This document shows positions 17,601 to 57,711 of a stretch of 64,000 nucleotides of DNA, one piece after another (position 1 is the stretch's first letter; every line of letters starts with the position of its first letter). Under the pieces are notes generated by a model, which was not told the DNA's origin, did not search any database, and worked only from the letters and a program-made list of their open reading frames with translations. The position numbers were made by a program, and so were the translations under genes. Origin of the DNA: an uncultured Chloroflexia bacterium. GTDB lineage: Bacteria; Chloroflexota; Limnocylindria; Limnocylindrales; CSP1-4. The stretch is taken from positions 256,001 to 320,000 of the forward strand of contig CAVVJT010000003.1 of assembly GCA_963748625.1 (NCBI GenBank), written 5' to 3'.

Positions 17601-18389
17601 GTCGGAGTGGAAGGCAATGAACGCGCGGTCAGGGGAGAGGGCCGGATCGGAGTCCTCGGCGGGGTCATCGGTCAGGCGTCCGTGTGCGTCCCAGATCTCC
17701 AGGCTGCCATTCCAACGGCCGTGGTAGAGCTCGCCGTCAACGCCTCCGAGGTCCGTGCCCGCCGACGTGTCCGCTCCGCCGATGCACTCCGTCGAGACCG
17801 GCACACAGAAGATGCCCCAGAGCGACCCGGACGTCGCCCGGAGCTCCGTTCCGCTGGCCCAGTCCACGCTCGAGAAGGCGGGATCGTTCGCGACCAGCGT
17901 CCACTCGAATGGGCTGGCCACGGGGACGAACTCCACATAGCCCTGCTCGCCGAGGATGCCCTCTGACGCCCACCCCGCACGGATGTAGGCGATGCGCGTG
18001 CCGTCAGGACTCCAGGCCGGGCGCCGGTCGTCGGCCTGAGCCGTCAGCCGGGTGAGGTTCGACCCGTCCACGTCGACGACGTAGATGCCGCCGGCGGCGA
18101 CGTCGCGAGACGCAAATGCGATCCGACGCCCGTTCGGGCTCCAGTCAGGATCTGCCGCCTCAAGACCAGCGGTCGGGACCTTCACCACGTCGGTGCCGTC
18201 TGGGTTGGCCGTGTAGATCGCCATCCCGCCGTCGCGGTCACTGGCGAACGCGAGCCTCCCATTCGTGCCGGGAAACGACCCGTAGGCGGTCAATGGCCCG
18301 GAGGTAATGCCCGCGCTCATGAGGGCAACCGCGCCGAGTGCCGCCAGCACGGCGACGCGACGCACGCTGAACGGTGGTCGATGTGGCAA
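14700..18389 (-). CDS. Secreted surface protein: TolB-like/PD40 propeller, repeated Ig-like domains, Fn3-like and basic C-terminal domain
   Basis: FPGTNGRLAFASDRDG, PDWSPNGRRIAF, PAWSPDGTRIAY and PDWQ motifs; TFSE.VTG Ig-like repeats. Confidence 0.9.
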   Translation of the reverse strand: MPHRPPFSVRRVAVLAALGAVALMSAGITSGPLTAYGSFPGTNGRLAFASDRDGGMAIYTANPDGTDVVKVPTAGLEAADPDWSPNGRRIAFASRDVAAGGIYVVDVDGSNLTRLTAQADDRRPAWSPDGTRIAYIRAGWASEGILGEQGYVEFVPVASPFEWTLVANDPAFSSVDWASGTELRATSGSLWGIFCVPVSTECIGGADTSAGTDLGGVDGELYHGRWNGSLEIWDAHGRLTDDPAEDSDPALSPDRAFIAFHSDRGGTDAIWVMNADGSSPHLVIESNGRNLTPDWQALPPLDLPPTATITPPATLTKDTSLTFTVTFSETVTGVSKGDFARTGTAAGCDLNPPTGSGSSYQIIVYGCREGTVVLSLAAGSVLDSAGQAGPSSAVTADTVTIYFTPPIVSDMSVSPSTVRPGAAVTVTATADDPMGVASAEVFTGRWWEPIEGTYGGPSEALSTVIMARDMTETYQVCVRATGVTGVTSDGTACAMLSVDGGSPSATLTPPATPTSAASLSYTLAFSEPVTGLAASDLTLAGTAAGCAVGTPSGSGSSYTVEVTGCGEGTVVLTLTAGSVSDGAGNPGPAADVGSAAVTIDRTAPTSAGSIAATVTAGTSVPVGYTASDGTGSGLALVTAYYSTSTDLASPVACGITAGTATSGTITCTIPAVDGTYYVYTRATDLAGNTETAPGTADDTILRDGGSPSATLTPPATPTSAASLSYTLAFSEPVTGLAASDLTLAGTAAGCAVGTPSGSGSSYTVEVTGCGEGTVVLTLTAGSVSDGAGNPGPAADVGSAAVTIDRTAPTSAGSIAATVTAGTSVPVGYTASDGTGSGLALVTAYYSTSTDLASPVACGITAGTATSGTITCTIPAVDGTYYVYTRATDLAGNTETAPGTADDTILRDGGSPSATLTPPATPTSAASLSYTLAFSEPVTGLAASDLTLAGTAAGCAVGTPSGSGSSYTVEVTGCGEGTVVLTLTAGSVSDGAGNPGPAADVGSAAVTIDRTAPSTPASLGATPRTGTALSGTAVPLTLAWKAAADAVSGVAAYELERSTSGGTWTAAGTYAGTSASVTAASSGTVRYRVRAVDKADNRGGWAYTATLSPRLTQQSSTSVRFGGTWTTTKSSSYSGGSVKYAKTKGRTATYTFTGRSIALVTTKSPSRGKVKVYVNGVYQGTVDTYRSSTQYRALAWQKTWSTSAKRTIKLVVSGTSGRPRVDLDAFVVVK
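15354..16895. repeat. Tandem repeat, 612-bp unit, about 2.5 identical copies
   Basis: gagccgccatc at 15661, 16273 and 16885; identical translation blocks. Confidence 0.95.
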
Positions 18390-31096: not shown

Positions 31097-31657
31097 TTAG
31101 CCGAAAGCCCAAGTCACCAGAAGAAAGTCCTCGGGCGCGATCGTGCCCGCGGCAAAGGCGAGACGCAGCCATGCTGCCTGGGCGGTGCCGCGATCACCAG
31201 GCCCCTTCATCTCCACCAACCGCGGTCGACGCGGGCTTTGCCACGCGATGATGTCCGGGTACCCGGACTCGCCGTGCCGGACCAGGATCGAGGCAAGTCG
31301 CGGAGGCAGGAGCGGCGGGACCGGCATCGTCGGGTTGGCCGGGGCGACCGGGACCAGCATCAGACTGCGCCAGTCATCATTCCGCTGGCCGCAGGTCGCC
31401 ACCCAGCCGGCGTTCCAATCCGAGGCGAGGAACCTGCGAACCATTGCGATCTCGGCGCACGAGAGCTGTCCATCAGGCCCCGCGACCAGATTGCCCTTCT
31501 TCGCGCAGTCGTAGGCGTGGTTGTCGAGCCGCTCACCGGTGAACGGTGCAAAGGTCGTGCTGGCGGTCCAGACCTCGACGCCACCGAAGATGCCGCGCAC
31601 GGGGGCCGTCAGTGGCCGGATCGCCCTAATCCATTCCAGATCCGCTGATCCAGTCAC
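31097..31657 (-). CDS. VRR-NUC-like PD-(D/E)xK nuclease
   Basis: GYPDII...LVEMKGPGDR..AQAAWL motif. Confidence 0.75.
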   Translation of the reverse strand: MTGSADLEWIRAIRPLTAPVRGIFGGVEVWTASTTFAPFTGERLDNHAYDCAKKGNLVAGPDGQLSCAEIAMVRRFLASDWNAGWVATCGQRNDDWRSLMLVPVAPANPTMPVPPLLPPRLASILVRHGESGYPDIIAWQSPRRPRLVEMKGPGDRGTAQAAWLRLAFAAGTIAPEDFLLVTWAFG

Positions 31658-31998
31658 CCGCCGCCTCTCGCGCTCGCCTGGTTGACGCCAGTCCTCGTTT
31701 CCCAAGTGTCGCACCCTCTGCGGACGCACGGTCCGCTGGCGAGGTCATCCGCCGGAGATCCTTGCTGCTCGCCCTCGGGTGCTCTCCCTCCCACAAGGGC
31801 TTCATTGTCCGACCGAGGTGACCGCGGTCGGTGAAGGGTTCTGTGTCCGACTGGTCGTCTTCTCCGTCGAGCTGTGCCGCGACCGGGATTCAGGGTTGTG
31901 CCCGATCCGCCCGATCGCGCGCTCGCTACGCTCCATGCCACGACCGTTACGCCGTCCGCGGTCCAGGGACCGCAGCAGCGCCCGTAGGCGGCTGGCGG

Positions 31999-32819: not shown

Positions 32820-33465
32820 TCACGAGACCCCGTTTTGGAGCGCCCCTTGCGCGGCCTCTTCCGCCTTCAGGAGTCGATCGAGGGTCGCGACGCCGATGCG
32901 CAGCTTCTTCGCCGCCTGACGCTTCGAGAGCCGGCCCTCGACGATCTCGACGCGCACCTTCGGCCAGGCCTTGGCGAAGCGCGGGTCGTCGGTGACTCGC
33001 GGACGACCGATCCTGATGCCCTTTGCGGCCGCGTGCCGCATCCCTTCCTTGACGCGCTCGCCGATCAGCTCCCGTTCCATCTCCGCGACCGCAGCCATGA
33101 TGTGGAACACGAGTCGGCCGGCTGGACTCGTGGTGTCGAGCTCGGGCTGTGTCAGCACGAAGAAGCCGACACCGTGATGGTTCAGGTCCTCCAGTGTGTT
33201 GACGGCGTCGAACCACCGAGCGGAAGGCCCGGTCGAGCTTCCAGACCATCACGACGTCGATCTTGCGCTGGCGTGCGTCCCGCAGCAGCGAGCGCCAGGC
33301 CACGCGACGGGACAGATCACCCGCCGACGCCTGGTCGACGTACTCGCTGACGTCCCAGCCCCGCGCCGCCGCGTAGGCGCGCATCGAGTCCATCTGGACC
33401 TCGGGATCCTGGTTCTTGTCGCGGGTCGAGACACGCGCGTACAGCGCGACACGCTGGATGGTCAC
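32820..33465 (-). CDS. Serine recombinase (resolvase/invertase family), frameshift near 33208
   Basis: ALYARVST, VWKLDRAFRS; second frame DTTSPAGRLVFHIMAAVAEMERELIGERVKEG...GRP plus HTH. Confidence 0.9.
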
Positions 33466-39506: not shown

Positions 39507-41309
39507 TCAGGGCCACATCGGTGCGGGCGGGATCTCACCGTTCGGGTAGAGGGTCGCGAGGTCGATGACGAGGAACTCCACGTACCCGTTGTACCTGCGA
39601 GTCAGTCTCTGGTATCGAGTTGTCGTTTTGATCCTGAGCGACTTGCCGGGCACGAGCGTGTACGTCTCCTTCGTCCCAAGGGGGATGGGGCCAGCCGCGA
39701 GGCGGGCGCCGCTGAATGCGACGTAGACGGGCCGGATCTGGACGCGCCCCGGCAGGTTGCGCGGTCTGATCACCATCGAGCCGGCCGGCTTGCGCAGGCC
39801 GGGTCGGCAGGACATGCGCGTACCTCCAAGGTCATAGCACCGAATGTAGTGGAAGGGGTCGGCCGAGAATGGCTCGACCCAGCGGGCGGACAGCACCTCA
39901 ACTCCGATCTCAGCCACCCTGCCAGCATCCTTGCCAGACAGGAGCAGCGGCCCGTCTCGTTCCCACTCCTCCAGATCGAGTGCCTGCTCGACGCTCCTGA
40001 CTTGGGCGCCGGTGACCTTCCGTCCCTTCTTGTCAAGGGGCGTGAAGGCGAGCTGCAGGACCGGGTATCCCTGGGAACGTAGGTTCAACGACTCGAGCAT
40101 GAACGGCCAACCGTCGACAGGTCTGGCCCTGATCATCAAGCCCACGGTGTCGGGACTCGCGGTCGGTCTGGGTGCAGGCGAGCCCGCGGAAGTGGGTGCG
40201 GGCGAAGCCGTTGCACTCGGTGCGGGCGAAGCTGTCGGGCTCGGTGCGGGCAGAGGTGTGGAGACTGACGGTGCGGGCGAAGCCGTCGGGCTCGGTGCGG
40301 ACTGCGGACCTGCGACGACCGCGGCAGGAGCAGGCGTGCCCGTCGCTGCAGGTGACGCCATCCCCGGTGCCGAGACTGCGACCTGGGTCAGCGCGACGGC
40401 GCCAACGATCGCGATCGCGGCGACAAGGAGCATCACGACCTTCATCGGGATTGCCGTCACTGCGGCGTGCGTGGTGGTGCCTGTCCCGCCCTTAGTTGGG
40501 TCCGTCGCCGAGCCCGCCTGGGCTCCTGTCTCACTCCCCGGTACCGGTGCTCCGGCGCCGGTGACCTGCATCCGGATCGCCTCGCCCATGCCGGCGGGGG
40601 CCGGGATGAGCGGCAGGATCCCGAGAGCACGCGACGCGCCCCGCAGCTCCTCGTCGATCGTCTGGCAGGTCGTGCATGCGGCGAAGTGGGCCGTGAACTC
40701 GGGCGTCGCCTTGGCCGGGGCCTCAATCCTGTCCAGCAGGTCGTCGCGGAAGCCCCGGCAGGTCGCTGCGGCCCCATGGATCCCGTACAGACGGTCGGCG
40801 TAGCGGCGGCGGACCGAGCGCCGCGCCCGGTGGACGAGGACGTACACCGAGTTCGCCGTCTTGCCCAGGGCCTCGGCGATCTCGGGCGCATCGCGGCCCT
40901 CGGCGACCATGGTGAGCACGGCCCGCTGGTCCGGGGCGAGGTCGTCCACCAGGCCCCAGACCGTGGCGAGCTGGTCGGCTGCGACGGTCGCGTGCGCCGG
41001 GTCGAGCGAGGGGTCCGTCTCGACCAGGCCCGGCCGCTCGAACGTCTCGCCGTCGGCGCCCTCGGTCTCGAGCGGTGCGTCACGGGCGTCGCGCAGGCGG
41101 GCCCGGCGGATGGCCTCGCGCGAGACGACGGTCGTCAGCCACGGACCCGCATCCAGGATCCGGTCAGCGCCCTGGTAGGCCCGGACGAACGCCTCCTGGA
41201 CGACGTCGGCGGCGAGGTCCTCGTCGCGCAGGATGCGCCGGCTGATCGAGTACAGGCGCGTGCTGTGCGACGCGTACAGCGCGTCGAAGGTGGAGACGTC
41301 GAGTGCCAT
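39507..41309 (-). CDS. ECF sigma factor fused to zinc-binding anti-sigma domain, TM helix, Pro/Ser/Thr linker and extracytoplasmic domain A
   Basis: Region 2 (LAADVVQEAFVRAY...WLTTVV), region 4 (EIAEALGKTANSVYVLVHRARR), HFAACTTC (Hx3Cx2C), TM helix. Confidence 0.9.
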   Translation of the reverse strand: MALDVSTFDALYASHSTRLYSISRRILRDEDLAADVVQEAFVRAYQGADRILDAGPWLTTVVSREAIRRARLRDARDAPLETEGADGETFERPGLVETDPSLDPAHATVAADQLATVWGLVDDLAPDQRAVLTMVAEGRDAPEIAEALGKTANSVYVLVHRARRSVRRRYADRLYGIHGAAATCRGFRDDLLDRIEAPAKATPEFTAHFAACTTCQTIDEELRGASRALGILPLIPAPAGMGEAIRMQVTGAGAPVPGSETGAQAGSATDPTKGGTGTTTHAAVTAIPMKVVMLLVAAIAIVGAVALTQVAVSAPGMASPAATGTPAPAAVVAGPQSAPSPTASPAPSVSTPLPAPSPTASPAPSATASPAPTSAGSPAPRPTASPDTVGLMIRARPVDGWPFMLESLNLRSQGYPVLQLAFTPLDKKGRKVTGAQVRSVEQALDLEEWERDGPLLLSGKDAGRVAEIGVEVLSARWVEPFSADPFHYIRCYDLGGTRMSCRPGLRKPAGSMVIRPRNLPGRVQIRPVYVAFSGARLAAGPIPLGTKETYTLVPGKSLRIKTTTRYQRLTRRYNGYVEFLVIDLATLYPNGEIPPAPMWP

Positions 41310-41312
41310 GGG

Positions 41313-41402
41313 TCAGGGGGCCGGCTGGATGGCGGGGTCGATGGCGCTCGTCACCCGGGCGAGCCCGGCCATGCGTCTGTACGTGACGAAACGGTTCGGC
41401 AT
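41313..41402 (-). CDS. Short leader ORF (29 aa) ending 3 nt before sigma copy 1
   Basis: GGGGAG SD, MPNRFVTYRRMAGLARVTSAIDPAIQPAP*; the sigma ATG has no SD of its own. Confidence 0.4.
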   Translation of the reverse strand: MPNRFVTYRRMAGLARVTSAIDPAIQPAP

Positions 41403-41578
41403 GAGGCTCCCCCAGTGCGGACTGTGTGGGACGCCGCGCGGCGATCATAGGCGGGATGCATCCTCGTGCGTGGGGCGTGCACGTCGTGCTTCCTACGCTC
41501 CTCGCGTTCTCGCAGACATATGCCGAGCGCCCGGCCATGGCTGGGGCGTCTTCAGCGCCACGCGGTCGACGGTCTCCT

Positions 41579-41845
41579 CTACCCGGGGCGCCACTTCGCT
41601 CGTGGTGGCACGACAGCCTCCCAGTCATCGGCCGGAACGACCCGGTCCCAGCTCCAGCGGCGCTTCGCGGCGAAGCCGTGCCAGTACGAGAGATCCCCCA
41701 TCCAGCCGCTTGTTGCGAGGCTGCCCGCGACGACAGGGTAGGACGGCACCTCGCCGGGCGACCGACCCTCGACCCATCGGAAGTAGTCGACGCGGCGCCG
41801 GATCACGCGCGATCGATGCGCCCGTCGCAGTGCTCGCTTGGCCAT
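41579..41845 (-). CDS. Small basic Trp-rich protein (88 aa)
   Basis: GGAGAG SD; directly downstream of the promoter motif at 41880-41907. Confidence 0.6.
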   Translation of the reverse strand: MAKRALRRAHRSRVIRRRVDYFRWVEGRSPGEVPSYPVVAGSLATSGWMGDLSYWHGFAAKRRWSWDRVVPADDWEAVVPPRAKWRPG

Positions 41846-41879
41846 CAGTCACTCTCCAGTCCAATCACTCCGTGAAGGG

Positions 41880-41907
41880 TTGAGTCCCGACGGCGGGCGT
41901 CCTTACA
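41880..41907 (-). promoter_or_regulatory. Putative ECF promoter TGTAAGG-N16-CTCAA
   Basis: Exact motif, 35 bp upstream of the ATG at 41845. Confidence 0.75.
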
Positions 41908-41954
41908 CCCCGCCCACGATTCGGCGGCGCTGTGGGGAACGACCTGCAGTCGAG

Positions 41955-42017
41955 CTGGCGAGTGGCTGCGGACTGGACGCGGCCAGCCGTGCTGGCATTG
42001 GCGATCGGGGTGTCCAT
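41955..42017 (-). pseudogene. N-terminal remnant of a paralogue of the 48923-50383 gene
   Basis: MDTPIANASTAGRVQSAATR vs MDTSTANATTDGPAQSSATR; the upstream ~90 bp is also similar to 50376-50465. Confidence 0.7.
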
Positions 42018-42067
42018 GGTTGCGCGTTCCCTCCGACGTTCGGCGGCAATATGCCGCCGATAGGCAC

Positions 42068-42095
42068 TTGAGCCGCGAGGGAGCCGCGTCTTACG
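42068..42095 (-). promoter_or_regulatory. Putative ECF promoter CGTAAGA-N16-CTCAA (diverged copy of 50434-50461)
   Basis: Same 16-bp spacer sequence as the 50434 site. Confidence 0.6.
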
Positions 42096-42505
42096 CCTTT
42101 GCAGAACGGTTGCGGGCGCTGTGCACGGAAGGACTGCTGACGGACGAGAAGAACGGCTTCGAATGCGACTTGCTCCGCGAAGGGATCTCCCTCGACGAAG
42201 TCTCCCTCCTGGTCGACCTGAAGAGCCCGTCCTCGAGCGGTCAGTTCGCCCTTATCGCAGGCGGCGGGGACGCCGTCGTGCGCCCGGAAGACGTCCCGGA
42301 AGTGCTGGCGGTGCTCACAGCGGGCCTGGGCGATGCAAACGCGGAGCGTGTGATCGCGGCCCTCCGAGCGTTGCCGAATTCCTACTACTGCCATTGGCCG
42401 GTCCTCGTCGACGGCGGGTACCAGATCACCCTGAAATGCGATGAGCGGTACCCGTCTTGGGCCGTTGAGGTACTACTCGAAGACGGCATGCCAATGACCC
42501 CGTAG
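42092..42505 (+). pseudogene. Start-less orphan domain distantly similar to extracytoplasmic domain B of sigma copy 2
   Basis: PEDVPEVLAVLTAGLGDANAERVIAALR aligns ungapped with ESELAEVKTYIDAVLEPTLAEPAMEWVR; also shared LxA(L/I)C...C and W....L..D; no SD or start. Confidence 0.5.
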
Positions 42506-42568
42506 CGAGAGAAGCCCAATGGCTCCGGCCGATCGACCACCATGCAAAATCTTCGGCTATGGCTCGCC

Positions 42569-42596
42569 TGTAAGGAATGGTTCCGATCTGGCTCAA
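42569..42596 (+). promoter_or_regulatory. Putative ECF promoter TGTAAGG-N16-CTCAA
   Basis: Exact motif, 59 bp upstream of the GTG at 42655. Confidence 0.75.
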
Positions 42597-42654
42597 CCAT
42601 TCAGGCGTGCAGAACACTCACCGCCGCGCCATCTTGAGCACCCTGGAGCAACAC

Positions 42655-43629
42655 GTGCGCAGACTGACGACACTCTTGACCACGACCCTCGCCGCTGGCG
42701 CCATCCTGACGGCCTGCGGCGGGAGCAACGCCGACGCGCTCACTGCCAAGAAGAATGCCGAGGCCCTCACTGGCGACAGTTGGCTACTCACGAGCACCAC
42801 CCTCAAGGTCCCCGCATTCCAGGCGGTCGTGGCGCCCGAGGACCAGACGAAGTTCGCGATCACGTTCGACGCAAACGGGATCTTCAACGCCGCCGCCGAC
42901 TGCAACCTACTCACGGGCACCTACACGACCACGGGAGCGGACGGTCTGTCGATCACCCCGGGTCCCACGACGACCGAATTCTGCGGGGAGGGCTCGTTCG
43001 ACTTCCTCTTCGCGCAAGCGCTGGGCAAAGTCTCGACTTACACCATCACGGCTGACGAGCTGACCACGACGCTATCGGACGGGGGCACCCTGACGTACGC
43101 CTCCGCCCAACGTCTCACCCAGGAGGAGGGCGTCAGCCCCGACGGCAGCATGAATGAATGCGCGTTCGTCTCGTCCGCCGACGCGTCGGACGCCCTTGGC
43201 GTCGAGGTGGGGGCCGTGCCCCTGGGCGGACTCGTGGACGCCACCGTGGGACAGATCCTCGACAAGCGCGTCATCCCCGACGCGGAGGAGTGCTGGGTCG
43301 TTGGGGGGAGCACGGCCACGACAGGGCGCATCGCGCGCCAGGTCGGCGACGATGCATCAGGGTCGTTCAACGCGGCGAGGGCCACGGCGATCGCCAGCGC
43401 CTACTTCGCCGGCGACGTCTCCGGCCTCGGCGACCAGGCGTTCTGCACCGGCATGTCAGAAGCGGAATCGTTCGGGGTGCTCGTGCTGCGTGGCGACACC
43501 CTCGTCTACGTGAGCCTGATCGATCCAGCTGTCGCCGGTTTGGACCGCCAGACGAACAGTGACGGCGTGGTCACCTCGCCCAAGACGTGTGCTCTCGCCC
43601 AGGAGGTCGCGAAGAAGGTGCTTCGCTGA
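42655..43629 (+). CDS. META (HslJ-like) domain lipoprotein with a second extracellular domain
   Basis: GGAG SD; lipobox LTAC; WLLTS...ITF...ADCN...GTY...GPTT...C pattern. Confidence 0.8.
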   Translation: MRRLTTLLTTTLAAGAILTACGGSNADALTAKKNAEALTGDSWLLTSTTLKVPAFQAVVAPEDQTKFAITFDANGIFNAAADCNLLTGTYTTTGADGLSITPGPTTTEFCGEGSFDFLFAQALGKVSTYTITADELTTTLSDGGTLTYASAQRLTQEEGVSPDGSMNECAFVSSADASDALGVEVGAVPLGGLVDATVGQILDKRVIPDAEECWVVGGSTATTGRIARQVGDDASGSFNAARATAIASAYFAGDVSGLGDQAFCTGMSEAESFGVLVLRGDTLVYVSLIDPAVAGLDRQTNSDGVVTSPKTCALAQEVAKKVLR

Positions 43630-44124
43630 GCAAGGCTCCAGGAGGTGCCGTCCTCGCGACGTAGCCGCCAACAGCCCATACCGTCACCGCGATCCCGGCC
43701 CACAGCACCCACCTGCCCAGGCGTCGTCCGGGCTCGGAGGCGTACAGCGTGCCGATCAAAGGGACTGCGCCGTGGGCGACCGAGACCAAGTTGGTCTTGA
43801 CCGCCACGCCCGCCGACGCCCAGTCGAGATCCGGCCCGTAGGTGAAGGCTCCGATGAGGACCGCGACATACCCCGCCTCCACAGCAGCAGCGATCCCAAG
43901 CGAGGCGACCAGGGTTGCCGTCCAATGCGGGGTGACCTAAGTCGTGGCCGATCGCCGCGCGATCTCGAGTCCTGCCTAACGGCTCCGCCGCGTGGCTTTG
44001 CCGGAATGCGGTGCCCCTCACGGTGTCGCTGCAAGACTCTCGAGCTATGCCGTATAGGAGTGTGCTGAACACCGGCTCACGCCTGCGCTCACGAGGGCAA
44101 GTGCGCCTGGCTCGTTGACTCCCG

Positions 44125-46275
44125 TCACGGAAGGTGGCCCCACGCAAGTGCGGTCGAGCCCTTGGCATCGACGATCCCCTTCGTCCGCGGCCCGTTGGCG
44201 CCTCCGACGATGACCAGCGCTCCGTCGGACCGTTCGATGACGGCTTCAGCGAAGGAACCAATTGGTGCATCTGGGAGCACGGTGGCACGCCACGCCTTGC
44301 CGTCGTCCGACACGAACACGCTCGCGCGCTCCTTGCCGGCGGGGCCGATGAAGCCAACCGCAACCCAGCCGCGCTCTCCAAACGGGATGACGTCGAGAAG
44401 GCCACCGCGGCGCGCAACCGTGAGCGGCTTCGACCAGCGCACGCCGTCGGTCGTCGTCCACACAACACCCTTGCCGTTGGCGATGCCGCCCGCGACAGCC
44501 GTCTTACGCCGGGCTGCCACGGCCTCCGCACGGACGACATCACCGTCACCAGCAGGCGCCGAGAAGGTGCCAAGTTCGGGCTGTAGGTCGCTGGCGAACC
44601 GATCGTAGTACGCGACTGGCTCGGTGTACTTGTCAGGGTTCTGGCACTCCCGGCGGCCCACGATGAGATGGCCCTCGCCATAGGGTGTGGTGGCGACGGC
44701 GTACAACTTGTCACACTCATCAGTGACACCCATCTCTCGGCCATCCAGTGGGAACCACTCCGAGCCGTCGCCGGAGCGGAAGCCGAAGGGGAACCACCAG
44801 ACATAGTCCGAGAAGTTCGTCTGTCGGCCGGCGACGACATACCCACCGCCGGGTGTGCCATCGATGCCGATGAAGCGCCCGACAACGGTCTTGCTGCCAT
44901 CGCGGGCTTCCGGCGGTGTCAGCGTCCAGGTGCGCCCGTCTGTGGTGGTCCATAGACCCGCGCGGCGCAACCCGAGGTTGCCCGCTGCCGTGAACCCGGT
45001 CTTTGTCGGGGCGACGCCAACGACGGTGTAGTCGGTGCCGAGCATCGGCTTCGGTGAGATCAGTTCCCACTCGCTGCCCTCGCCGCGGAGGACGGCGCCT
45101 GTGGCCCGGCGCTGGCCGACGGCTACGAGCACGTCATCGCGTGTGGCAACGTCGTACAGATACATCGCCTTGCCGCCCTCGGGCAGAGTCAGCGGCAACC
45201 AACTGAGCGCGGCGACGCCAGAACCCGGGGTCGTCGCGGGAGTCGCCGGCGTCGCCGGGGCGCTCGTCGGCGTGAGTGGCGGAGTCGGGGTCGGCGCCGG
45301 GGCCGGAGTCGATGGCGGCGGCGCAGATCCGTCATAGGAGATCGACGCTGTCGAAGTCTTGTCCCAGCTCGAAATGACGTTGATCAGGTACGGGGCGATC
45401 TTGCCGACCGCGGCGACCTGCTCCGCCGTCTTGCCGATGAGTCCAAAGACATCGTCGCCGTACGAGGACAGCTTGTTCGTCGTGGCCGAGATCGCCGCCT
45501 TGAGGTCCTCTTCGATGGCCGCGCTGCCGGAGTTGAGAGGGACCCCTGCGGCGATCACGTCCCAGAGGTCCTGCAGCATCCCGAGGACCTGATCACCGGC
45601 AGCAACGAAGTCTCCGTCCGCCATCGCGGCAGCCAGCGGGGCCGACCGGAATGTGACGACGCCCAGCAGCCACGCGATCGTATCGGCGTTCACGAGGATC
45701 CCGACGCCGGGCACCGGCGCTGCGTAGCCGATCAGGATCTCCAAGGTCATCAGGCTGGCATCGAGGATGACGCTCACGCCCTCGACCTTGGACTGGAGGC
45801 TGACCGTCAGCGTGCCGCCTCCACGCGCGGAGAGCTCCACGCCTTGGGTTACGCCCCCGACAAGACCGGTGGCGAAGGATGGCTGGCTCTTTGTATTAGC
45901 GCTGTTGCACAGGCCCGTGATGTTCGGCTTCACGCACGTGAATGAGGGGACAACCAAGTCGCCGCTCTGCGTTGTTGTAGCCCTGACCTGCTGGGAGTAC
46001 CCCCCGTCCCACCCCATCCACAGGAGGAGGTCATCAAACGGGGTACCAGTCCTGATCTCCGTGGCGCTCTTGAGGATCACTGTCATGACGGCCTTGCTCG
46101 GGTCCGTCCGGTTGCGATCGAGCGTCACGCTCAGTCCACCGCCATCGGACGACACTTGAGACCAGGTCCCCACGGCATCTTCGCGCCAGGCTCCCAGTGC
46201 GACGCCAGGCGCCTGCGGCGGCGGCACGGACAGCGCAACGACGATCGCGCAGAGGGTGACAAGCAGGCGCTTCAC
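44125..46275 (-). CDS. Secreted protein: N-terminal domain, hydrophobic helical region, Pro/Thr linker, BNR-like propeller repeats
   Basis: Signal peptide; WTTTDGRTW, FRSGDGSEW, WTTTDGVRW and VSDDGKAW repeats. Confidence 0.8.
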   Translation of the reverse strand: MKRLLVTLCAIVVALSVPPPQAPGVALGAWREDAVGTWSQVSSDGGGLSVTLDRNRTDPSKAVMTVILKSATEIRTGTPFDDLLLWMGWDGGYSQQVRATTTQSGDLVVPSFTCVKPNITGLCNSANTKSQPSFATGLVGGVTQGVELSARGGGTLTVSLQSKVEGVSVILDASLMTLEILIGYAAPVPGVGILVNADTIAWLLGVVTFRSAPLAAAMADGDFVAAGDQVLGMLQDLWDVIAAGVPLNSGSAAIEEDLKAAISATTNKLSSYGDDVFGLIGKTAEQVAAVGKIAPYLINVISSWDKTSTASISYDGSAPPPSTPAPAPTPTPPLTPTSAPATPATPATTPGSGVAALSWLPLTLPEGGKAMYLYDVATRDDVLVAVGQRRATGAVLRGEGSEWELISPKPMLGTDYTVVGVAPTKTGFTAAGNLGLRRAGLWTTTDGRTWTLTPPEARDGSKTVVGRFIGIDGTPGGGYVVAGRQTNFSDYVWWFPFGFRSGDGSEWFPLDGREMGVTDECDKLYAVATTPYGEGHLIVGRRECQNPDKYTEPVAYYDRFASDLQPELGTFSAPAGDGDVVRAEAVAARRKTAVAGGIANGKGVVWTTTDGVRWSKPLTVARRGGLLDVIPFGERGWVAVGFIGPAGKERASVFVSDDGKAWRATVLPDAPIGSFAEAVIERSDGALVIVGGANGPRTKGIVDAKGSTALAWGHLP

Positions 46276-47069
46276 GGGATCACCACCACACTCACTCGGG
46301 ATCCACCGGCAGGCTCAGGAACTATCGCGATCTCGGCCCGGAGCCGGGAGTCGTCAACCACGAACGCTGCGCGTTCCCCGTCGATGATCGGCTCCGGGGT
46401 CGCCCCTGTCCCGCTGATCGCTGCGCGATAGAAGTCCACGAGGGCCCCGGTGGTCGCCGGCGTCACGAAGACCGCAGCCGTCTTGGAGCCTGCCGTGCCC
46501 GCGTCGAAGAGTTCTGCATCGGGTGGCGCGAGAAAGGCGGGGAAGTCCTCGGGCAAGGCGTCGGCCCGCGGCATCGCAGGGTCCGGCTCTCCTGTATCGC
46601 CCACGTGCTGCGGCCCGAGCGCGACGGCGAACACGGTAGGGCTGGTCAAGGCCACCGTCACCACCGTGCGGGCGAACTCGCCGGACGCGTCCTCGAAGGT
46701 GAACACACTCTGATCGAGCATCTTGACGTCGCTCGTGCGGGACCAGGCAGCATCCTCAAGCTCCCGGTAGAAGCGCGAGACATCGGCCGGCGGAGCATCC
46801 GTCACCCAACGCGCCCAGTAGCTCGCAGGCGGGCCGCTGCCGCCGGTGGCCGCGACAAGCGTCGCTCCATCGGGCAGCGGGAAGTCCGGGAAGCCCGGCG
46901 GGAGCGAGGCAGCCGGCGCGCCGGATTGCGCGGGGTCGTTGGCCGCGCCATCAACGGCAGGCGTAGCCGGGGGGCTCTGCCACGGCCTGAGCACCGCCAG
47001 GGCGGCTCCCGCGATCACTACTGCACTGGCGCCCGCGGCAACCAACAACAAACGTCGAGACCGTCCCAT
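46272..47069 (-). CDS. Membrane-anchored protein with two similar extracellular domains
   Basis: GAGGGGG SD; N-terminal TM; LP.GFP.FP.P.GA...V..FYR motif twice. Confidence 0.7.
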   Translation of the reverse strand: MGRSRRLLLVAAGASAVVIAGAALAVLRPWQSPPATPAVDGAANDPAQSGAPAASLPPGFPDFPLPDGATLVAATGGSGPPASYWARWVTDAPPADVSRFYRELEDAAWSRTSDVKMLDQSVFTFEDASGEFARTVVTVALTSPTVFAVALGPQHVGDTGEPDPAMPRADALPEDFPAFLAPPDAELFDAGTAGSKTAAVFVTPATTGALVDFYRAAISGTGATPEPIIDGERAAFVVDDSRLRAEIAIVPEPAGGSRVSVVVIP

Positions 47070-47246
47070 CAAGACCCCCTCAGGCTCGTGTACCGCCCGT
47101 GCTTCCGGTGGACTGCCACAGATGGGGACGCACTGCGGCACGATGGCTCCTTCCCATGACCACGACCGCACGAGAGGTCCGAGCGCGAGCACGGAGCAGA
47201 TCCCGTCGCCTCTGACCCGCGCACGCGACAATCATCGCCGTGCTGA

Positions 47247-48881
47247 TCATGGGCACACCGGTGCGGGAGGTTTGTCATTGTTGGAGACCATGTAGTTCCA
47301 GTCCATGAGGTTCACTTGCAGCCACGGGTTGCTGCCGGCCTTCCTCGCCGTCGGAAAGACATCTACCAGAAGCCCGGTCCCCAGGCACTTCATGTTGAAC
47401 CCCAAGAACTCCCCATTCTTCTGCGAGTAGCGCACCCACTCCATCGCCGGTTCGGCCAGAGTCGGCTCGAGGACCGCGTCGATGTATGTCTTGACCTCGG
47501 CGAGCTCGCTCTCCGAGGGGAAACTCTTCCGCTTCGCCAGCACGTAGATGTGCACACTTCGGCAGCCAGGCGGGAGGCAGGACTCGGTGATGACGCTGGT
47601 ACGCACGCCGGTACTTCCGAGTTCGCCCTGGTCACCATCCGAGCTGCACGAGACCTCGTTGTCCGGGCTAAGGGGCGGGTTGAATCCCTCCGGGAAGCCA
47701 GCGCAGATCGCAAGCAGATTGGCCTTGTAGTCGGGCAGGAACGGGTAGGTGTCAGCCGCGGAAGTGGGTGCGGGCGAAGCCGTTGCACTCGGTGCGGGCG
47801 AAGCTGTCGGGCTCGGTGCGGGCAGAGGTGTGGAGACTGACGGTGCGGGCGAAGCCGTCGGGCTCGGTGCGGACTGCGGACCTGCGACGACCGCGGCAGG
47901 AGCAGGCGTGCCCGTCGCTGCAGGTGACGCCATCCCCGGTGCCGAGACTGCGACCTGGGTCAGCGCGACGGCGCCAACGATCGCGATCGCGGCGACAAGG
48001 AGCATCACGACCTTCATCGGGATTGCCGTCACTGCGGCGTGCGTGGTGGTGCCTGTCCCGCCCTTAGTTGGGTCCGTCGCCGAGCCCGCCTGGGCTCCTG
48101 TCTCACTCCCCGGTACCGGTGCTCCGGCGCCGGTGACCTGCATCCGGATCGCCTCGCCCATGCCGGCGGGGGCCGGGATGAGCGGCAGGATCCCGAGAGC
48201 ACGCGACGCGCCCCGCAGCTCCTCGTCGATCGTCTGGCAGGTCGTGCATGCGGCGAAGTGGGCCGTGAACTCGGGCGTCGCCTTGGCCGGGGCCTCAATC
48301 CTGTCCAGCAGGTCGTCGCGGAAGCCCCGGCAGGTCGCTGCGGCCCCATGGATCCCGTACAGACGGTCGGCGTAGCGGCGGCGGACCGAGCGCCGCGCCC
48401 GGTGGACGAGGACGTACACCGAGTTCGCCGTCTTGCCCAGGGCCTCGGCGATCTCGGGCGCATCGCGGCCCTCGGCGACCATGGTGAGCACGGCCCGCTG
48501 GTCCGGGGCGAGGTCGTCCACCAGGCCCCAGACCGTGGCGAGCTGGTCGGCTGCGACGGTCGCGTGCGCCGGGTCGAGCGAGGGGTCCGTCTCGACCAGG
48601 CCCGGCCGCTCGAACGTCTCGCCGTCGGCGCCCTCGGTCTCGAGCGGTGCGTCACGGGCGTCGCGCAGGCGGGCCCGGCGGATGGCCTCGCGCGAGACGA
48701 CGGTCGTCAGCCACGGACCCGCATCCAGGATCCGGTCAGCGCCCTGGTAGGCCCGGACGAACGCCTCCTGGACGACGTCGGCGGCGAGGTCCTCGTCGCG
48801 CAGGATGCGCCGGCTGATCGAGTACAGGCGCGTGCTGTGCGACGCGTACAGCGCGTCGAAGGTGGAGACGTCGAGTGCCAT
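47247..48881 (-). CDS. ECF sigma / anti-sigma / TM fusion, copy 2, with extracytoplasmic domain B (6 Cys)
   Basis: First ~375 aa identical to 39507-41309; different C-terminal ~169 aa. Confidence 0.9.
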   Translation of the reverse strand: MALDVSTFDALYASHSTRLYSISRRILRDEDLAADVVQEAFVRAYQGADRILDAGPWLTTVVSREAIRRARLRDARDAPLETEGADGETFERPGLVETDPSLDPAHATVAADQLATVWGLVDDLAPDQRAVLTMVAEGRDAPEIAEALGKTANSVYVLVHRARRSVRRRYADRLYGIHGAAATCRGFRDDLLDRIEAPAKATPEFTAHFAACTTCQTIDEELRGASRALGILPLIPAPAGMGEAIRMQVTGAGAPVPGSETGAQAGSATDPTKGGTGTTTHAAVTAIPMKVVMLLVAAIAIVGAVALTQVAVSAPGMASPAATGTPAPAAVVAGPQSAPSPTASPAPSVSTPLPAPSPTASPAPSATASPAPTSAADTYPFLPDYKANLLAICAGFPEGFNPPLSPDNEVSCSSDGDQGELGSTGVRTSVITESCLPPGCRSVHIYVLAKRKSFPSESELAEVKTYIDAVLEPTLAEPAMEWVRYSQKNGEFLGFNMKCLGTGLLVDVFPTARKAGSNPWLQVNLMDWNYMVSNNDKPPAPVCP

Positions 48882-48922
48882 GGGTCAGGGGGCCGGCTGG
48901 ATGGCGGGGTCGATGGCGCTCG

Positions 48923-50383
48923 TCACCCGGGGATCTCGAATGAGAGTGTGCCGTCGTCGAGCACGGTGTCCCAGTTGTACGGCTGGAGCTCGAGGTCTGT
49001 CGTGTGCAAGCTTCCCGGCTCGGCGCCCTCGGACATCTCGAGCCCAAGTCCGGGATTGTTCGGGTCGCGACCCGGGACGTTCACGAGACCGCCGTCCAAG
49101 GCGGTCGCGACGACCTCCTCGCCTCGGGTGCAGTCCAGGCCGTCGCCGAGCACTTCGAACTTGAGGTAGAGCCACGGGTTGGCGTCGAGGTAGTAGAGGA
49201 TGCGGTCTGCCGTCACGCGAACGGTCGCGTTCCGGTTCTTCTCACACAGGGGACGGCTTGATGGATCTGGCGTCGGCCGAAGGTCGACCGGCTTCGCATC
49301 GAGCATGACCACGCGGAGGGGAAGGCCCGGGAGCATGAGGCTGACCGTGTCGTTGACCGTGTCGACGACCGCCGCCGTGCCGTCAGGACCCGTGAACTTG
49401 AACACATCCTTGGTGGCACCGGTGTCCTGCAGGTCGCGCTCGGTGGTGCTGCCAATCGACGTCCAGGGATCCGTGAGCCTGGTCAGGACATCCTTCTCCA
49501 TCTCGCCGGCACCCTGGACAAGCTTGCGCACGGCCAGTTCGTCGCCTGCCGTCTGGGCGGCCCCGAAGGCCGCGTAGGCGGCCACTGCCTTCGCGAGAAC
49601 CGCGTCCGGGTTGAGGTTGCCGCGGTGGACGATCGCCCCGACGGGGTCGCTGGCCTTCTGCTCGTGGAGCAGCGTCCGCATGCCGTCTGCGACGAGCACG
49701 AGCTGCTCGAGCGTGCCGTCCTTGCCATCTCGCTCGGTCTCTTCCACGCCGGTGAGCCAGGTCGGCTCGTTGATCACCTGCTCGGCGGGCGCGGGTTCAC
49801 CCGGCACGATGGACTGCTCGAGGGACACCGACGAGCCGAACATCTCTGCGCGTGGTTGCATGCCATCGACAAGCGCCGTGGCCGCGGCCTTGCTCGTGAC
49901 ATCGGGAAGCAATGCCTCGAGACTCAGCGCGCCCTCGTGCCCGAGCACCGTGATCCGGCGCTGGTCGTCCTTGCCGGTGACGACCATGTTCGTGGTCATC
50001 TGCGCCTCGGTGATGTTCGCGCTCGCTCGGTCTCCCTCGACGGTCCAGGTGACGTTGTAGGCCGTCTCGTCGGTCTTGCTCTTCGTGGCAACGACATCGG
50101 TGACCGTGAGGGTTGCGTCACCGGGCACGAGCGCGAGGCCGGCCGTCGCTCCGAAGTCCTGCCAGCCGTCTGTGTGCTCGGCTGCCTTGCCGGTCGCGAG
50201 CGCCTCCAGGTCGCCACGGATGAGCCCGGGCACCGGGTCCTCGCGGAACACGGTCATCGCGGCCACGACGGCAAGGATCGCGACAACGGCCACGACTGTC
50301 GCGACGATGATCGGCCCACGGCGGCGAGTGGCTGAGGACTGGGCGGGGCCGTCGGTGGTGGCATTGGCGGTCGAGGTGTCCAT
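48923..50383 (-). CDS. Single-TM extracytoplasmic hypothetical protein
   Basis: GGAGGGA SD; N-terminal TM; first gene downstream of promoter motif 50434-50461. Confidence 0.8.
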   Translation of the reverse strand: MDTSTANATTDGPAQSSATRRRGPIIVATVVAVVAILAVVAAMTVFREDPVPGLIRGDLEALATGKAAEHTDGWQDFGATAGLALVPGDATLTVTDVVATKSKTDETAYNVTWTVEGDRASANITEAQMTTNMVVTGKDDQRRITVLGHEGALSLEALLPDVTSKAAATALVDGMQPRAEMFGSSVSLEQSIVPGEPAPAEQVINEPTWLTGVEETERDGKDGTLEQLVLVADGMRTLLHEQKASDPVGAIVHRGNLNPDAVLAKAVAAYAAFGAAQTAGDELAVRKLVQGAGEMEKDVLTRLTDPWTSIGSTTERDLQDTGATKDVFKFTGPDGTAAVVDTVNDTVSLMLPGLPLRVVMLDAKPVDLRPTPDPSSRPLCEKNRNATVRVTADRILYYLDANPWLYLKFEVLGDGLDCTRGEEVVATALDGGLVNVPGRDPNNPGLGLEMSEGAEPGSLHTTDLELQPYNWDTVLDDGTLSFEIPG

Positions 50384-50433
50384 GATTGCGCGTTCCCTCC
50401 GGCATCAGGCGACGAGATGCCGCCGATGAGTAC

Positions 50434-50461
50434 TTGAGCCGCGAGGGAGCCGCGCCTTACA
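50434..50461 (-). promoter_or_regulatory. Putative ECF promoter TGTAAGG-N16-CTCAA (would drive sigma copy 2: autoregulation)
   Basis: Exact motif, 51 bp upstream of the ATG at 50383. Confidence 0.75.
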
Positions 50462-50717
50462 CCTGTGCGCAAAGGAACCCCGAATGTCCTCCCGCGAGCT
50501 GACCATACCGGATGCGATCGGGGCAGCGAGGGCCGCCTGCGCGGGGCGGCTGACGGGGTCAGCGATCACCCTCAACACGACCGTACCGGCCGGCGACGTC
50601 GCAGTGGTCAGGGCAAACCCTGAATGTCGCGCACGGGCAGGATGTGGAGGTGGCAATGCGCCCATGCAGGCAGTCGAACCGCCACGGTGTCACGGGGCCG
50701 ATCAGGCACCCCGGGCG

Positions 50718-55251: not shown

Positions 55252-56639
55252 ATGGTCGACATGAACGACACGACCCCCGACATCGCCGCCTGGCTCGAGA
55301 GCCGCCGCGTCACCATCGAGCCCGTCGCCGACGGTGACATCGTCGGCATCGGCCACGCGCTCACCCACTGCCGCAGCCTGCTCGGCCGGCTCCAGCACGA
55401 GGAGCAGGGGGCTCGTGCCGGCGCCGCGTCGGTCCGCTCGATCCTCCTCCAAGGGCCGGCCGGCAGCGGCAAGACGCTGACCGCCCGGTGGTTCGCGGGG
55501 CAGCTCGGCTCCGTGCCGGCCTACGACCTGCCGGCGGAGCAGCTGACCCCGGAGCGCATCCGTGCCGCGTTCACCCACCTCGCGACCACCCCCCGGTCGA
55601 TCGTGTTCCTGGCCGAGATCGACTCGATCGGCCTCAACCGGCGTGATGCCGACCGCGAGTCGCGCCGAAGCCTGTTCGCGCTGCTCGAGGCGCTCGACGG
55701 GCTGGCTCCGGTCCCGGCGGGCAACGGGCCCGTCGTCATCGCGACCACCAACCGTTCGCGGTGCGAGCTCGACCAGGCCCTCATCCGGCCTGGCCGGCTC
55801 GGGACCCACGTCGTGTTCGGACTCCCGACCACGGCCGAGCGCATCGAGCTGTTCCGTCGCTTCGCGGCGCCGTGGATCGGACGGCTCCCCGATCAGCTGG
55901 GATCGGCTCGCCGAGATGAGCGCCCGCTGGAGCCCGGCGGACATCCGCGGCGCCGTCGACGACGCCCTGGGGCTTGCGCTCATGCGTGACGGCCGGGGGG
56001 CGTGCCTGACCGAAGAGGATCTCGTGGCGGCGACCCGCCGGGCCGGCAGGGTCGAGCCCGACGACGAGCAGCCGTTCGCGGATCTCGCCCAGATCGCCGT
56101 CCACGAAGCCGGGCATGCTGCCGTCGCCGATCGCACTCGGGCGCACGGTCCGAAGCGTGCACCTCGCCGTCGGCCGGCGCGGCGGCAGGACCGAGACCGG
56201 GACCGAGGGTGGCCTCCTGACCGATGCCGACGTGCGGGCGGGCGTGGTGGTCGCCCTGGGCGGCGTCGCGGCCGAGGAGCTGCTGAGCGACAGCCCGACC
56301 ACGGGTGCCGAGAGCGACGTCCAGCGGGCGACCGAGCTGCTCATCGCGCGCATCGAGGCCGGTCTCGATCCCGCGTTCCCGCCGGTCTCGCGCCGTGCCT
56401 GGGGCATGTTCGCGCCGCCGCAGGCGGTCGACGCGCTCATCGCGCCGCACGTCATCCGGGCCCTCGGGGCCGCCCGCGAACAGGCGCGGGAGATCGTCTA
56501 CCGCGAACGGGTGGCGATCGAGCGGTTCGCGGAGCTCCTGCTCGCGGAGCCCGACCTCTCCGGCGTCGCCCTTGACGCGGCGCTGGCCGCCGTGGGGTGG
56601 CGCACCCCGACCAGCACCGACCAGATGGAGGCTGCTTGA
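55252..56639 (+). CDS. Soluble FtsH-like AAA+ ATPase / M41 peptidase, two frameshifts (~55885, ~56128)
   Basis: ILLQGPAGSGKT, IVFLAEID, ATTNR...LDQALIRPGR; WSPADI; AVHEAGHA; LGGVAAEEL...TTGAESDVQRAT; no TM. Confidence 0.85.
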
Positions 56640-56641
56640 CC

Positions 56642-56875
56642 ATGGACCGCTCCACCGCTCCGCAGAGCGACCACTTCCCCACCGCGACCACCGAGGACTG
56701 GGCCGTCTTTGCCGAGGCCTACGCCGATCTGGTCGCCGATGCGGTCGGCGACGCTGACATCGCGGCCGCGAACCAGTCCAACGTCGCACCTCAGCGACTG
56801 GCCCGACGCCAGGGCGCGCGGCGCGATCGCCAGGGATTCCTCATGCCCTTGGCGCGGGCCGCCGCCACCGGTTGA
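56642..56875 (+). CDS. Small hypothetical protein
   Basis: GGAGG SD; follows the FtsH-like stop by 2 nt. Confidence 0.45.
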   Translation: MDRSTAPQSDHFPTATTEDWAVFAEAYADLVADAVGDADIAAANQSNVAPQRLARRQGARRDRQGFLMPLARAAATG

Positions 56876-56878
56876 CCA

Positions 56879-56997
56879 TGTGTCCCGAGTGTGTATCCCG
56901 TGCCGTCCGGGACCCCTCTGGTGCGGCCGGGACACAGGATCGGACACAGCGCTCCGCCACAAGATGGATCGAGGCCCCGGGTCGAGCCGGGGCCTCG
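56879..56997. repeat. Inverted pairs of TGTGTCC-type repeats followed by an 11-bp-stem hairpin
   Basis: tgtgtccc 56879, tgtgtatc 56890, gggacaca 56929, cggacaca 56941; cgaggccccgg/ccggggcctcg 56970-56997. Confidence 0.5.
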
Positions 56998-57174
56998 TCC
57001 TGTCCGCATCGCCAGTGACCCGGCGACGATCTCTCGGCCGCGTTGGCGACCCAGCGGACCATCGGCGCACGACGCCACTTGTCAGGCATCCGTGGTTCTC
57101 TGGTGCATCAAGGACGGTTGGTAGTTCGAGTGGGTCATTGCGGCCTTAGGGCTCGCGAGGGACGATGTGGGTCG

Positions 57175-57711
57175 ATGGCTGACAGCAACGAGCCGATCAC
57201 CGCTGACCGACTGGAGAATCTGCCGACGCGGCTGATCGTCGCGTTTGCCGCCGACTGTGCCGAACATGTCCTGCCGATCTTCGAGCGGGCATACCCGGAC
57301 GACCCGCGGCCACGCGCCGCGATCGCTGCCGTCCGCGAGCGGCTGGAAGGAAGATCATCAAGGGAGAGCCTCGATCGCGCCCGTGCAGGGTCCAGCAAGG
57401 CCAGCGGCAGGCCCTGGGGCAACCATGCCGTCACGGGCGCCCCAGGCTGGTATGACGGCATGCTTCCGCTGGACACGGAGTCCGCCGCCGACGCAGCGAC
57501 GGGTGCCGCCCTCGCCGCTCTATCTGCCAACGATGCTGCCGAGTCGGCCCGAGTCGCAGCCCGCGTCGCGGTTGACGCGGTGGAGGCGCTGGTCTACGCG
57601 TGGCAGCATCAGTCTGGGATGGATTTCCCCGCCGCGCAGGCCTACGCTTCTCCTCTCGAGCGTGCCTGGCAGGCCGAGCGCCTCACCGCCCTCGAGTCGG
57701 ACCTCGGCTGA
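57175..57711 (+). CDS. Imm5-like putative immunity-family protein
   Basis: FAADCAEHVLPIFERAYPDDPRPRAAIAA...ERAWQ signature. Confidence 0.75.
   Translation: MADSNEPITADRLENLPTRLIVAFAADCAEHVLPIFERAYPDDPRPRAAIAAVRERLEGRSSRESLDRARAGSSKASGRPWGNHAVTGAPGWYDGMLPLDTESAADAATGAALAALSANDAAESARVAARVAVDAVEALVYAWQHQSGMDFPAAQAYASPLERAWQAERLTALESDLG

Follow-up and report, generated by a model that had tools for sequence, protein, structure and literature searches.

How do two neighbouring genes come to carry one and the same signalling half joined to different sensor tails? The question is raised by a 64,000-nt stretch of a probable Chloroflexota genome (GenBank assembly GCA_963748625.1, contig CAVVJT010000003.1, positions 256,001 to 320,000 of the forward strand; G000:C3:256001-320000 in our numbering), referred to below as the window. 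Here, gene A (P0001, 600 aa, 39507..41309) and gene B (P0002, 544 aa, 47247..48881), both on the minus strand, encode extracytoplasmic function (ECF) sigma factors fused to an anti-sigma domain, a transmembrane (TM) helix, a linker, and a C-terminal tail. The genome comprises 4.63 Mb on 10 contigs, with a completeness of 98.3% and an estimated contamination of 7.74% (CheckM-type values), and its source is described as an uncultured soil bacterium. An earlier note, made from the sequence alone, had reported 1176 identical bp common to both genes and had proposed that exchange of C-terminal domains, as known from polymorphic toxins, diversifies a repertoire of receptors.

Two genes with an identical chassis and different tails

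Direct comparison bore out the identical stretch: positions 40184-41359 equal positions 47756-48931 over 1176 bp (100% identity, no mismatch), and blastn gave the same outcome. An identity of this length cannot be attributed to chance. Just outside both ends of the tract, identity falls to 0.18–0.44 in 100-bp windows, which is the noise level for DNA of 68–71% G+C. The shared module (copy A, 40184..41359; copy B, 47756..48931; minus strand) comprises 50 bp of leader, codons 1–375, and one further nucleotide of the two open reading frames (ORFs); the first 375 residues of both proteins are identical. Exactly two copies of this constant part are present in the genome, both of full length and with a start codon. 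They lie 7.5 kb apart on the same 335-kb contig, and all four flanks of the tract are single-copy in the genome (tblastn for the tails).

All elements that the earlier note had placed in the shared part, i.e., the leader, sigma regions 2 and 4, the Hx3Cx2C motif, the TM helix, and the Pro/Ser/Thr linker, could be located on the minus strand of both copies. Residues 11–73 match sigma-70 region 2 (Sigma70_r2, PF04542; 41091..41279, copy B 48663-48851; E 4e-11, 43 bits against a cut-off of 24), and residues 120–164 match region 4 (Sigma70_r4_2, PF08281; 40818..40952, copy B 48390-48524; E 1.4e-9, 37.8 bits against a cut-off of 25.7). Profile searches returned no match to sigma-70 region 1 or 3 in either protein. 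The ECF superfamily model TIGR02937 was passed with 55.8 bits (cut-off 42.9), and only ECF sigma factors were found among the PDB matches, the best being SigJ (5xe7, E 2.4e-8, residues 3–168). All NCBIfam equivalog and subfamily models stayed far under their cut-offs (best NF008888, 73 vs. 204 bits). Motif inspection then revealed the zinc-type anti-sigma (ZAS) motif C184...H208xxxC212xxC215 (40665..40760, copy B 48237-48332), which reads HFAACTTC at residues 208–215. As is characteristic of ZAS domains, HxxxCxxC is accompanied by a Cys/His about 24–26 residues upstream, here C184. In an alignment with four distant fused homologues (P0003-P0006), C184, H208, C212, and C215 are invariant in all five fused sequences.

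The anti-sigma motif is followed by a single predicted TM helix at residues ~286–312 (40374..40454, copy B 47946-48026). Kyte–Doolittle windows of 19 residues with values above 1.6 begin at residues 280–299, with a maximum of 2.63 at residue 289. The subsequent Pro/Ser/Thr/Ala linker, recognized by its composition (20 P, 13 S, 8 T, and 19 A per 72 residues) and by a 24-bp tandem array, covers residues 313–387 in copy A (40149..40373) and ends at the junction in copy B (47756-47945). The periodic array was located at 40162-40300 (Tandem Repeats Finder, TRF) and extends 22 bp beyond the junction in copy A. Among the 36 sigma-70 region-2 matches of the genome, of which 11 long frames were inspected, only genes A and B show this sigma–HxxxCxxC–TM fusion.

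We also modelled residues 1–175 together with residues 176–265. The complex scored 0.77, compared to 0.01 for the best of three controls, although this may only mirror solved sigma/anti-sigma complexes; a mark of 0.77 is attained by 116 of 157 solved complexes and by 2 of 215 mismatched pairs. The runs agreed in at least 93% of contacts, and the pLDDT of the partner was at least 77. In the model, residues 185–250 pack on both sigma-2 and sigma-4, with contacts at residues 5–46 and 97–175. The prediction thus shows a likeness of residues 176–265 to class I anti-sigma domains and leaves binding itself unproven.

Beyond the tract, the reading frame runs on through both tails (225 and 169 codons) with a coding-type composition. 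Tail A (P0012, 225 aa, 39510..40183, minus strand) contains two Cys residues and has a G+C content of 0.81 at third codon positions (GC3) vs. 0.52 at second positions (GC2); tail B (P0013, 169 aa, 47250..47755, minus strand) contains six Cys residues, with a GC3 of 0.82 vs. a GC2 of 0.46. The median GC3 of the genome is 0.85 (2110 long ORFs). The abrupt switch to unrelated tails at the linker end, as described in the earlier note, holds for gene B, where the tail begins right after the junction. It does not hold for gene A, where the junction lies inside the linker and the tail opens with 12 further linker residues. Furthermore, the tails are unrelated except for their last 27 residues, which align weakly (BLASTP E 0.012; 18 of 1000 shuffles attain the score) and finish with PPAPxxP in both proteins. 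These shared ends are no more than a hint that the tails may have a common descent.

Both tails are orphans. Neither matches a Pfam family at E up to 1, and tblastn found each of them in a single copy in the genome, with no orphan tail cassettes. An exhaustive comparison of tail A with 1.84 billion representative sequences returned only tail A itself and a partial match to P0014, a 2687-aa repeat protein whose modules of ~113 aa align to tail A residues 12–51 at 32–37% identity; this may be a weak lead to an Ig-like repeat at the start of the tail and does not define a family. Word searches of sequence databases with tail B returned only itself. In 150 same-family genomes, both tails gave chance-level matches only (E 5e-4 to 0.009, some with stops). 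Structure predictions for the tails were poor, with single-sequence AlphaFold2 pLDDT values of 36.9 (A) and 35.5 (B).

The chassis, too, is isolated. No homologue above ~30% identity was found in 24 same-genus genomes, where the best matches (30%) were sigma factors of the type encoded on contig C10 of this genome (see below). The best chassis match among 5.8 billion clustered proteins reached 29%, and in metagenome contigs identity peaked at 48% for short segments and at 37% for the sigma domain. Close chassis homologues were also lacking in 40 related genomes. All 96 related loci examined (96/96) carry stand-alone sigma frames of 141–230 aa. The four distant fused homologues P0003-P0006 share the TM helix and a Pro/Thr linker with the pair; their linkers cannot be aligned and their tails differ, that of P0004 bearing a BACON_2/Ig-like domain. 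In several relatives' loci (L011-L014, L016, L017, L023, and L024) and at G000:C10, the chassis match crosses a single in-frame TGA into the anti-sigma gene. Judged from these frames, a sigma/anti-sigma fusion could arise simply by the loss of this stop codon.

Proposed signalling and known fused ECF factors

How would such a pair work? In the mechanism that we propose, the cytoplasmic sigma-2/sigma-4 domain would be held inactive in cis by the zinc-type C-HxxxCxxC anti-sigma domain and tethered by the one membrane helix, which would be followed by an extracytoplasmic Pro/Ser/Thr stalk and a small Cys-containing outer tail, different in each copy, that receives the stimulus. A stimulus at either tail would trigger regulated proteolysis, i.e., a site-1 cut, cleavage by an M50 site-2 protease, and cytoplasmic degradation of the anti-sigma part, and the same sigma factor would be freed from either protein. 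Because sigma-2 and sigma-4 are identical, both proteins should choose the same promoters, as the earlier note had reasoned; its argument holds as a logical consequence of the identical DNA-binding parts. Two inputs would thereby converge on one promoter set, and two sensors feeding one sigma factor is a reasonable view of the pair. We infer topology, zinc binding, proteolytic release, and the shared regulon from the domain layout. Genes for M50 site-2 proteases are present in the genome.

The proposed architecture has precedents. In the accessible text of PMC5826349 and PMC8999054, ECF52, ECF53, and ECF48 proteins (e.g., SCO4117 of Streptomyces coelicolor) are described with the same order of sigma, ZAS-like zinc finger, TM helix, long Pro-rich extracytoplasmic stretch, and terminal domain, which agrees with the resemblance claimed in the earlier note. 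Regulated intramembrane proteolysis is proposed for ECF48/52/53 in the same portion of PMC8999054, and for IutY of Pseudomonas putida (ECF243) this source reports experimentally shown release by Prc and RseP. IutY is likewise a single polypeptide with the sigma domain N-terminal and a membrane-bound anti-sigma domain C-terminal (PMC8999054, in part). However, IutY acts in cell-surface signalling of the FecI/FecR type, together with a TonB-dependent receptor of a diderm organism, and nothing of this kind was seen around the pair. According to the available part of PMC5826349, which cites Huang et al. 2015, ECF52 is exclusive to Actinobacteria and carries a carbohydrate-binding module. In contrast, no Pfam domain, carbohydrate-binding or otherwise, was matched in either tail of the pair (E up to 1), and the pair resides in a probable Chloroflexota genome. 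For the latter, the best EF-Tu match (86%) is a metagenome-assembled genome labelled Chloroflexia and the other 79 listed loci reach 65–77%, which is a weak taxonomic test without phylogeny. A further difference from the known ECF52/53/48 proteins is the presence of two gene copies with an identical chassis, whose sigma domain is at most ~30% identical to anything in the 24 same-genus genomes or the 5.8 billion clustered proteins. By analogy, the pair may work like ECF52/53-type fusions, yet we do not file it as a member. A pair with an identical chassis was not described in the literature searched, which covered gene conversion among ECF/anti-sigma paralogues, and ECF52/53 or Chloroflexi in the main text of PMC7826278.

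Among known systems, the SigI/RsgI set of Clostridium thermocellum comes closest in function to one inner module with different sensors. As far as the consulted excerpts of PMC12203970, PMC10575876, and PMC10328401 describe it, this set comprises several membrane-bound anti-sigma factors that combine a common inner module and RseP-type cleavage with different outer sensors. There, however, the sigma factors are not fused to their anti-sigmas: every RsgI is paired with a dedicated SigI that prefers its own promoters, and known carbohydrate-binding modules form the outer parts, whereas here the sigma factor is identical and fused and the tails are orphans. Membership in the polymorphic-toxin type was considered as well and rejected: we found no nearby alternative cassettes sharing a piece of the constant region and no homologue family sharing the junction.

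Origin of the identical tract

We consider it rather likely that A and B are two real paralogous genes, each encoding a one-polypeptide ECF sigma/anti-sigma sensor, whose chassis was made identical by very recent non-reciprocal recombination, be it gene conversion of old tandem paralogues or partial duplication, with no dedicated tail-swapping. This reading draws on a second, diverged block of homology. A 146-bp block, consisting of a conserved leader and the first 20 codons of an ORF, is located at 41957..42102 in locus A, where a 38-codon remnant ORF follows, and at 50323..50468 in locus B, where the codons are those of the upstream gene P0007 (both minus strand). The two blocks are 84% identical, lie upstream of gene A and gene B, respectively, in matching order and orientation, and occur nowhere else in the genome; the two loci thus share a history older than the 100% tract. 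A near-identical tract within loci that share older, diverged homology in the same arrangement is expected of gene conversion, and this combination was found here (1176 bp at 100% and 146 bp at 84%). Together with the similar C-terminal ends of the tails, the block favours old paralogues with recent conversion. The copying direction was probably from A to B, to judge from the linker array, which passes the junction only in A and thereby makes A the more likely source.

Sharp borders and zero mismatches could also result from a one-off chimera, in which a 1176-bp piece of A was copied by illegitimate recombination into an unrelated locus, in frame with a pre-existing ORF (tail B), with gene B being a neutral or non-functional by-product in a decaying island. 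Such an event would fit the drop of identity to noise at both borders without residual homology, the orphan tails without family, the linker array truncated in B, and the absence of the pair from all relatives searched. Hallmarks of an island are indeed present in the window, with a tyrosine integrase, a VRR-NUC nuclease, a 112-aa resolvase fragment, and a split FtsH-like gene (10250-11464, 31097-31729, 32820-33158, 55252-56639), and many ORFs of the window are without families. However, the 84% block upstream of both loci needs an older shared history, a similar PPAPxxP stretch ends both tails, gene B is embedded in a tight, operon-like row of four genes, and the GC3 of both tails is of the coding type. 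We therefore regard a chimera as improbable, although far from negligible.

Several other results weigh against recent homogenization of two functional paralogues. No residual homology was detected just outside the tract (local alignment z-scores of 1.4–1.5 relative to shuffles); the DNA beyond the tail ends, the stretch separating the tract from the 146-bp block, and the sequence upstream of that block were likewise devoid of it (z 0.1–1.5). As conversion between diverged paralogues often leaves residual homology, a one-step partial duplication fits equally well. With no substitutions in the tract, the present arrangement is too young for selection to have acted on it, and one copy could be a neutral by-product. 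An orthologue of the pair is absent from the 24 same-genus and the 150 same-family genomes, which precludes dating the pair or demonstrating selection on it. Regarding the proposed function, M50 genes occur in 14 of 14 control genomes and their presence does not discriminate, no sigma-70-like promoter was found for either gene, and the Pfam family zf-HC2 (PF13490) remained unmatched both with the whole proteins (E up to 1) and with residues 164–270 (E up to 5); the homologues P0003-P0005 match it only below the cut-off (E 0.003–0.09). Finally, contig pieces of 98–413 bp from four public sequencing runs, which hold only small shares of the genome (at most 0.12), include none that crosses position 40184 or 41359. 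The pieces recovered comprise exact matches inside tail A (39831-39981 and 40005-40155, run X1), exact matches to the sigma part (41005-41241) and the A-specific upstream flank (41736-41800) from run X3, and sigma-part pieces of ~97% identity from run X2.

Is homogenization of this kind seen elsewhere in the genome? A genome self-comparison yielded 18 repeat pairs (≥400 bp, ≥95% identity), including internal tandem repeats of giant surface proteins. One pair is formed by the two EF-Tu (tuf) genes, which lie 16.6 kb apart (C10:652354-653557 and 668944-670145) and are 99.8% identical over 1204 bp, exactly over the coding region. The bacterial paralogues tufA and tufB are the classic case of interlocus gene conversion, i.e., concerted evolution. 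The A/B tract resembles the tuf case in its near-perfect identity, its sharp borders, and its unrelated flanks; unlike there, it covers only part of the gene and stops in the linker, which leaves the same signalling half joined to different sensor halves. Two further pairs of neighbouring surface-protein genes, one of them in the window, are 99.9% identical with only the 3' third in common.

The most instructive case is a second ECF locus on contig C10 (L119, 64742-67295), which consists of an ECF sigma gene (67295..66546) and, downstream of it, two anti-sigma genes (66549..65686, 287 aa, and 65644..64742, 300 aa). These twin anti-sigmas share their first ~150 residues, comprising the binding module and the first TM helix, at 99.3% identity over 448 bp and differ in the remainder. 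The C10 sigma is kept across the genus at 79–92% identity. Among the relatives' loci with enough downstream DNA, five of nine contain twin anti-sigma genes and the other four a single copy; three further loci ended by contig ends were left out. Within each of six genomes, the module is 97.5–99.5% identical at the DNA level, compared to 50–79% protein identity between genomes. Modules that are alike within and diverged between genomes bear the signature of recurrent gene conversion. On this sequence comparison, sharp-bordered homogenization of ECF-sensor signalling modules is evidently a real and lasting process in the lineage. Taken together, the 146-bp block at both loci and the concerted evolution elsewhere point to homogenization of the constant part of A and B rather than to tail swapping.

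The repeat pairs also bear on the question of an assembly or polishing artefact, in which the copies would really be diverged or single and the identical tract or one junction made by the assembler. The exact identity of 100% exceeds that of the other repeat pairs (98.3–99.9%), no read or contig spans position 40184 or 41359, and the estimated contamination of 7.74% would leave room for such an error. On the other hand, the tract has four different single-copy flanks, it reads in frame into long coding-like ORFs at both downstream joins, and both copies are placed 7.5 kb apart on one contig. The assembly furthermore separates other repeats with 2–10 mismatches and resolves long perfect tandem arrays, and module duplications of this kind recur at the C10 locus in independent assemblies of five relatives. 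This internal evidence argues against an artefact without proving its absence, and we consider an artefact very improbable.

The proposal of the earlier note, a receptor repertoire generated by C-terminal exchange, would imply a dedicated system that swaps outer domains onto a constant chassis at a fixed junction in the manner of polymorphic toxins. The identical chassis with different tails is compatible with it, the repetitive linker at the junction could favour recombination, distant fused homologues bear various tails (e.g., the BACON_2/Ig-like domain of P0004), and the split version, in which one sigma is accompanied by two anti-sigmas with a common binding module and distinct outer parts, is kept across the genus. 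However, we found only two copies of the chassis and no orphan cassettes or extra tail copies in the genome, and just two fusions in the 11 long frames inspected from the 36 region-2 matches. Each copy carries a start codon together with 50 bp of leader, in which they differ from displaced C-terminal cassettes, and the direct-repeat geometry permits deletion, not reversible switching. Tabulating the tails joined at the same point, as the earlier note had suggested, is impossible since no homologue exceeds ~30% identity, and none is close enough to share the junction. The repertoire thus found no support, and a dedicated exchange system appears highly unlikely.

It is a different question whether the layout of identical chassis and different tails is a selected wiring of this Chloroflexota lineage, in which recurrent conversion would keep the sigma-binding and membrane module the same, so that both sensors address one identical sigma factor, while the outer parts, located beyond the converted region, diverge past recognition, realized in a split form (the C10 type, in at least six genomes) and in the fused form of A and B, for multi-input control of a single regulon. 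We regard this as attractive but doubtful. To our knowledge, apart from SCO4117 and IutY, fused one-component ECF factors have been recognized solely by comparative genomics, and the signals sensed by their outer domains are largely unknown. Here, the natural pair represents a ready-made experiment, because any difference in response must stem from the tail. The pair and the genus-wide twin anti-sigmas suggest that gene conversion can fix an inner module while the sensors diverge; if selected, this would be a simple means to feed several signals into one regulon, and if the pair is only a recent rearrangement in a plastic island, it would be an example of ordinary paralogue recombination. The pair also extends an ECF52/53-like architecture beyond Actinobacteria. 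The fused architecture itself is already known, and we view the new element as a fused ECF sigma/anti-sigma sensor that occurs as a pair, with a recombination-homogenized chassis and orphan tails.

Surroundings of the two genes

Gene B is the second gene of a tight, operon-like row on the minus strand. It is preceded by P0007 (48923..50383, 486 aa), which encodes a protein with an N-terminal TM anchor and no Pfam family and ends 41 bp before gene B; the upstream end of shared module copy B overlaps the last two codons and the stop codon of P0007. Gene B is followed by P0008 (46272-47231; exported, no Pfam family) after a gap of 15 bp and by P0009 (44125-46275, 716 aa; exported, no Pfam family) with a gap of −4 bp to P0008. 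P0007 and gene B are probably co-transcribed. P0009 contains a Pro/Thr linker and, in its C-terminal half, several W-x-T-T-D-G-x-x-W-like motifs; judged by eye, these resemble BNR/Asp-box or beta-propeller repeats, for which a Pfam match is absent. Downstream of gene A, at a distance of 330 bp, P0010 (38500..39177, minus strand, 225 aa) encodes a protein with a signal peptide.

In the conserved leader of both loci (42018-42110 and 50384-50476, minus strand), a hairpin is predicted that pairs CTCCCTC with the Shine-Dalgarno sequence GGAGGG and would sequester the ribosome-binding site. The hairpin is a possible candidate for a translational control element; with two sequences only, covariation is not available, and no Rfam family was matched between positions 36000 and 52000. 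The leader motif GTAAG-N-TCAAGT occurs within the window only at the two loci and once more in the genome, as a dissimilar chance match on contig C7, so that no regulon can be derived from it.

By its gene content, the entire window resembles a plastic island, and no tRNA genes were found in it. The split FtsH-like gene consists of an AAA ORF and a Peptidase_M41 ORF, which may indicate a frameshift or a pseudogene. The surface-protein pair of the window is formed by two adjacent minus-strand genes (11600-14695 and 14700-18389), which share a 99.9% identical 3' module of 975 bp (11589-12562 and 14689-15663) and have different N-terminal parts. Both giant proteins carry fn3, PD40, and Big_12 domains, and both genes hold perfect internal tandem repeats with periods of ~375 and ~612 bp. 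The other pair, on contig C2, encodes adhesin-like proteins of 1608 and 957 aa with different N-terminal parts and a 99.9% identical C-terminal module of 1007 bp that includes the membrane anchor (C2:49844-50850 and 56354-57360). Lastly, the end of contig C4 (826973-829351) and the start of contig C5 (1-2377) overlap by 2.4 kb at 99.4% identity; these contigs probably join, or the overlap represents strain variants.

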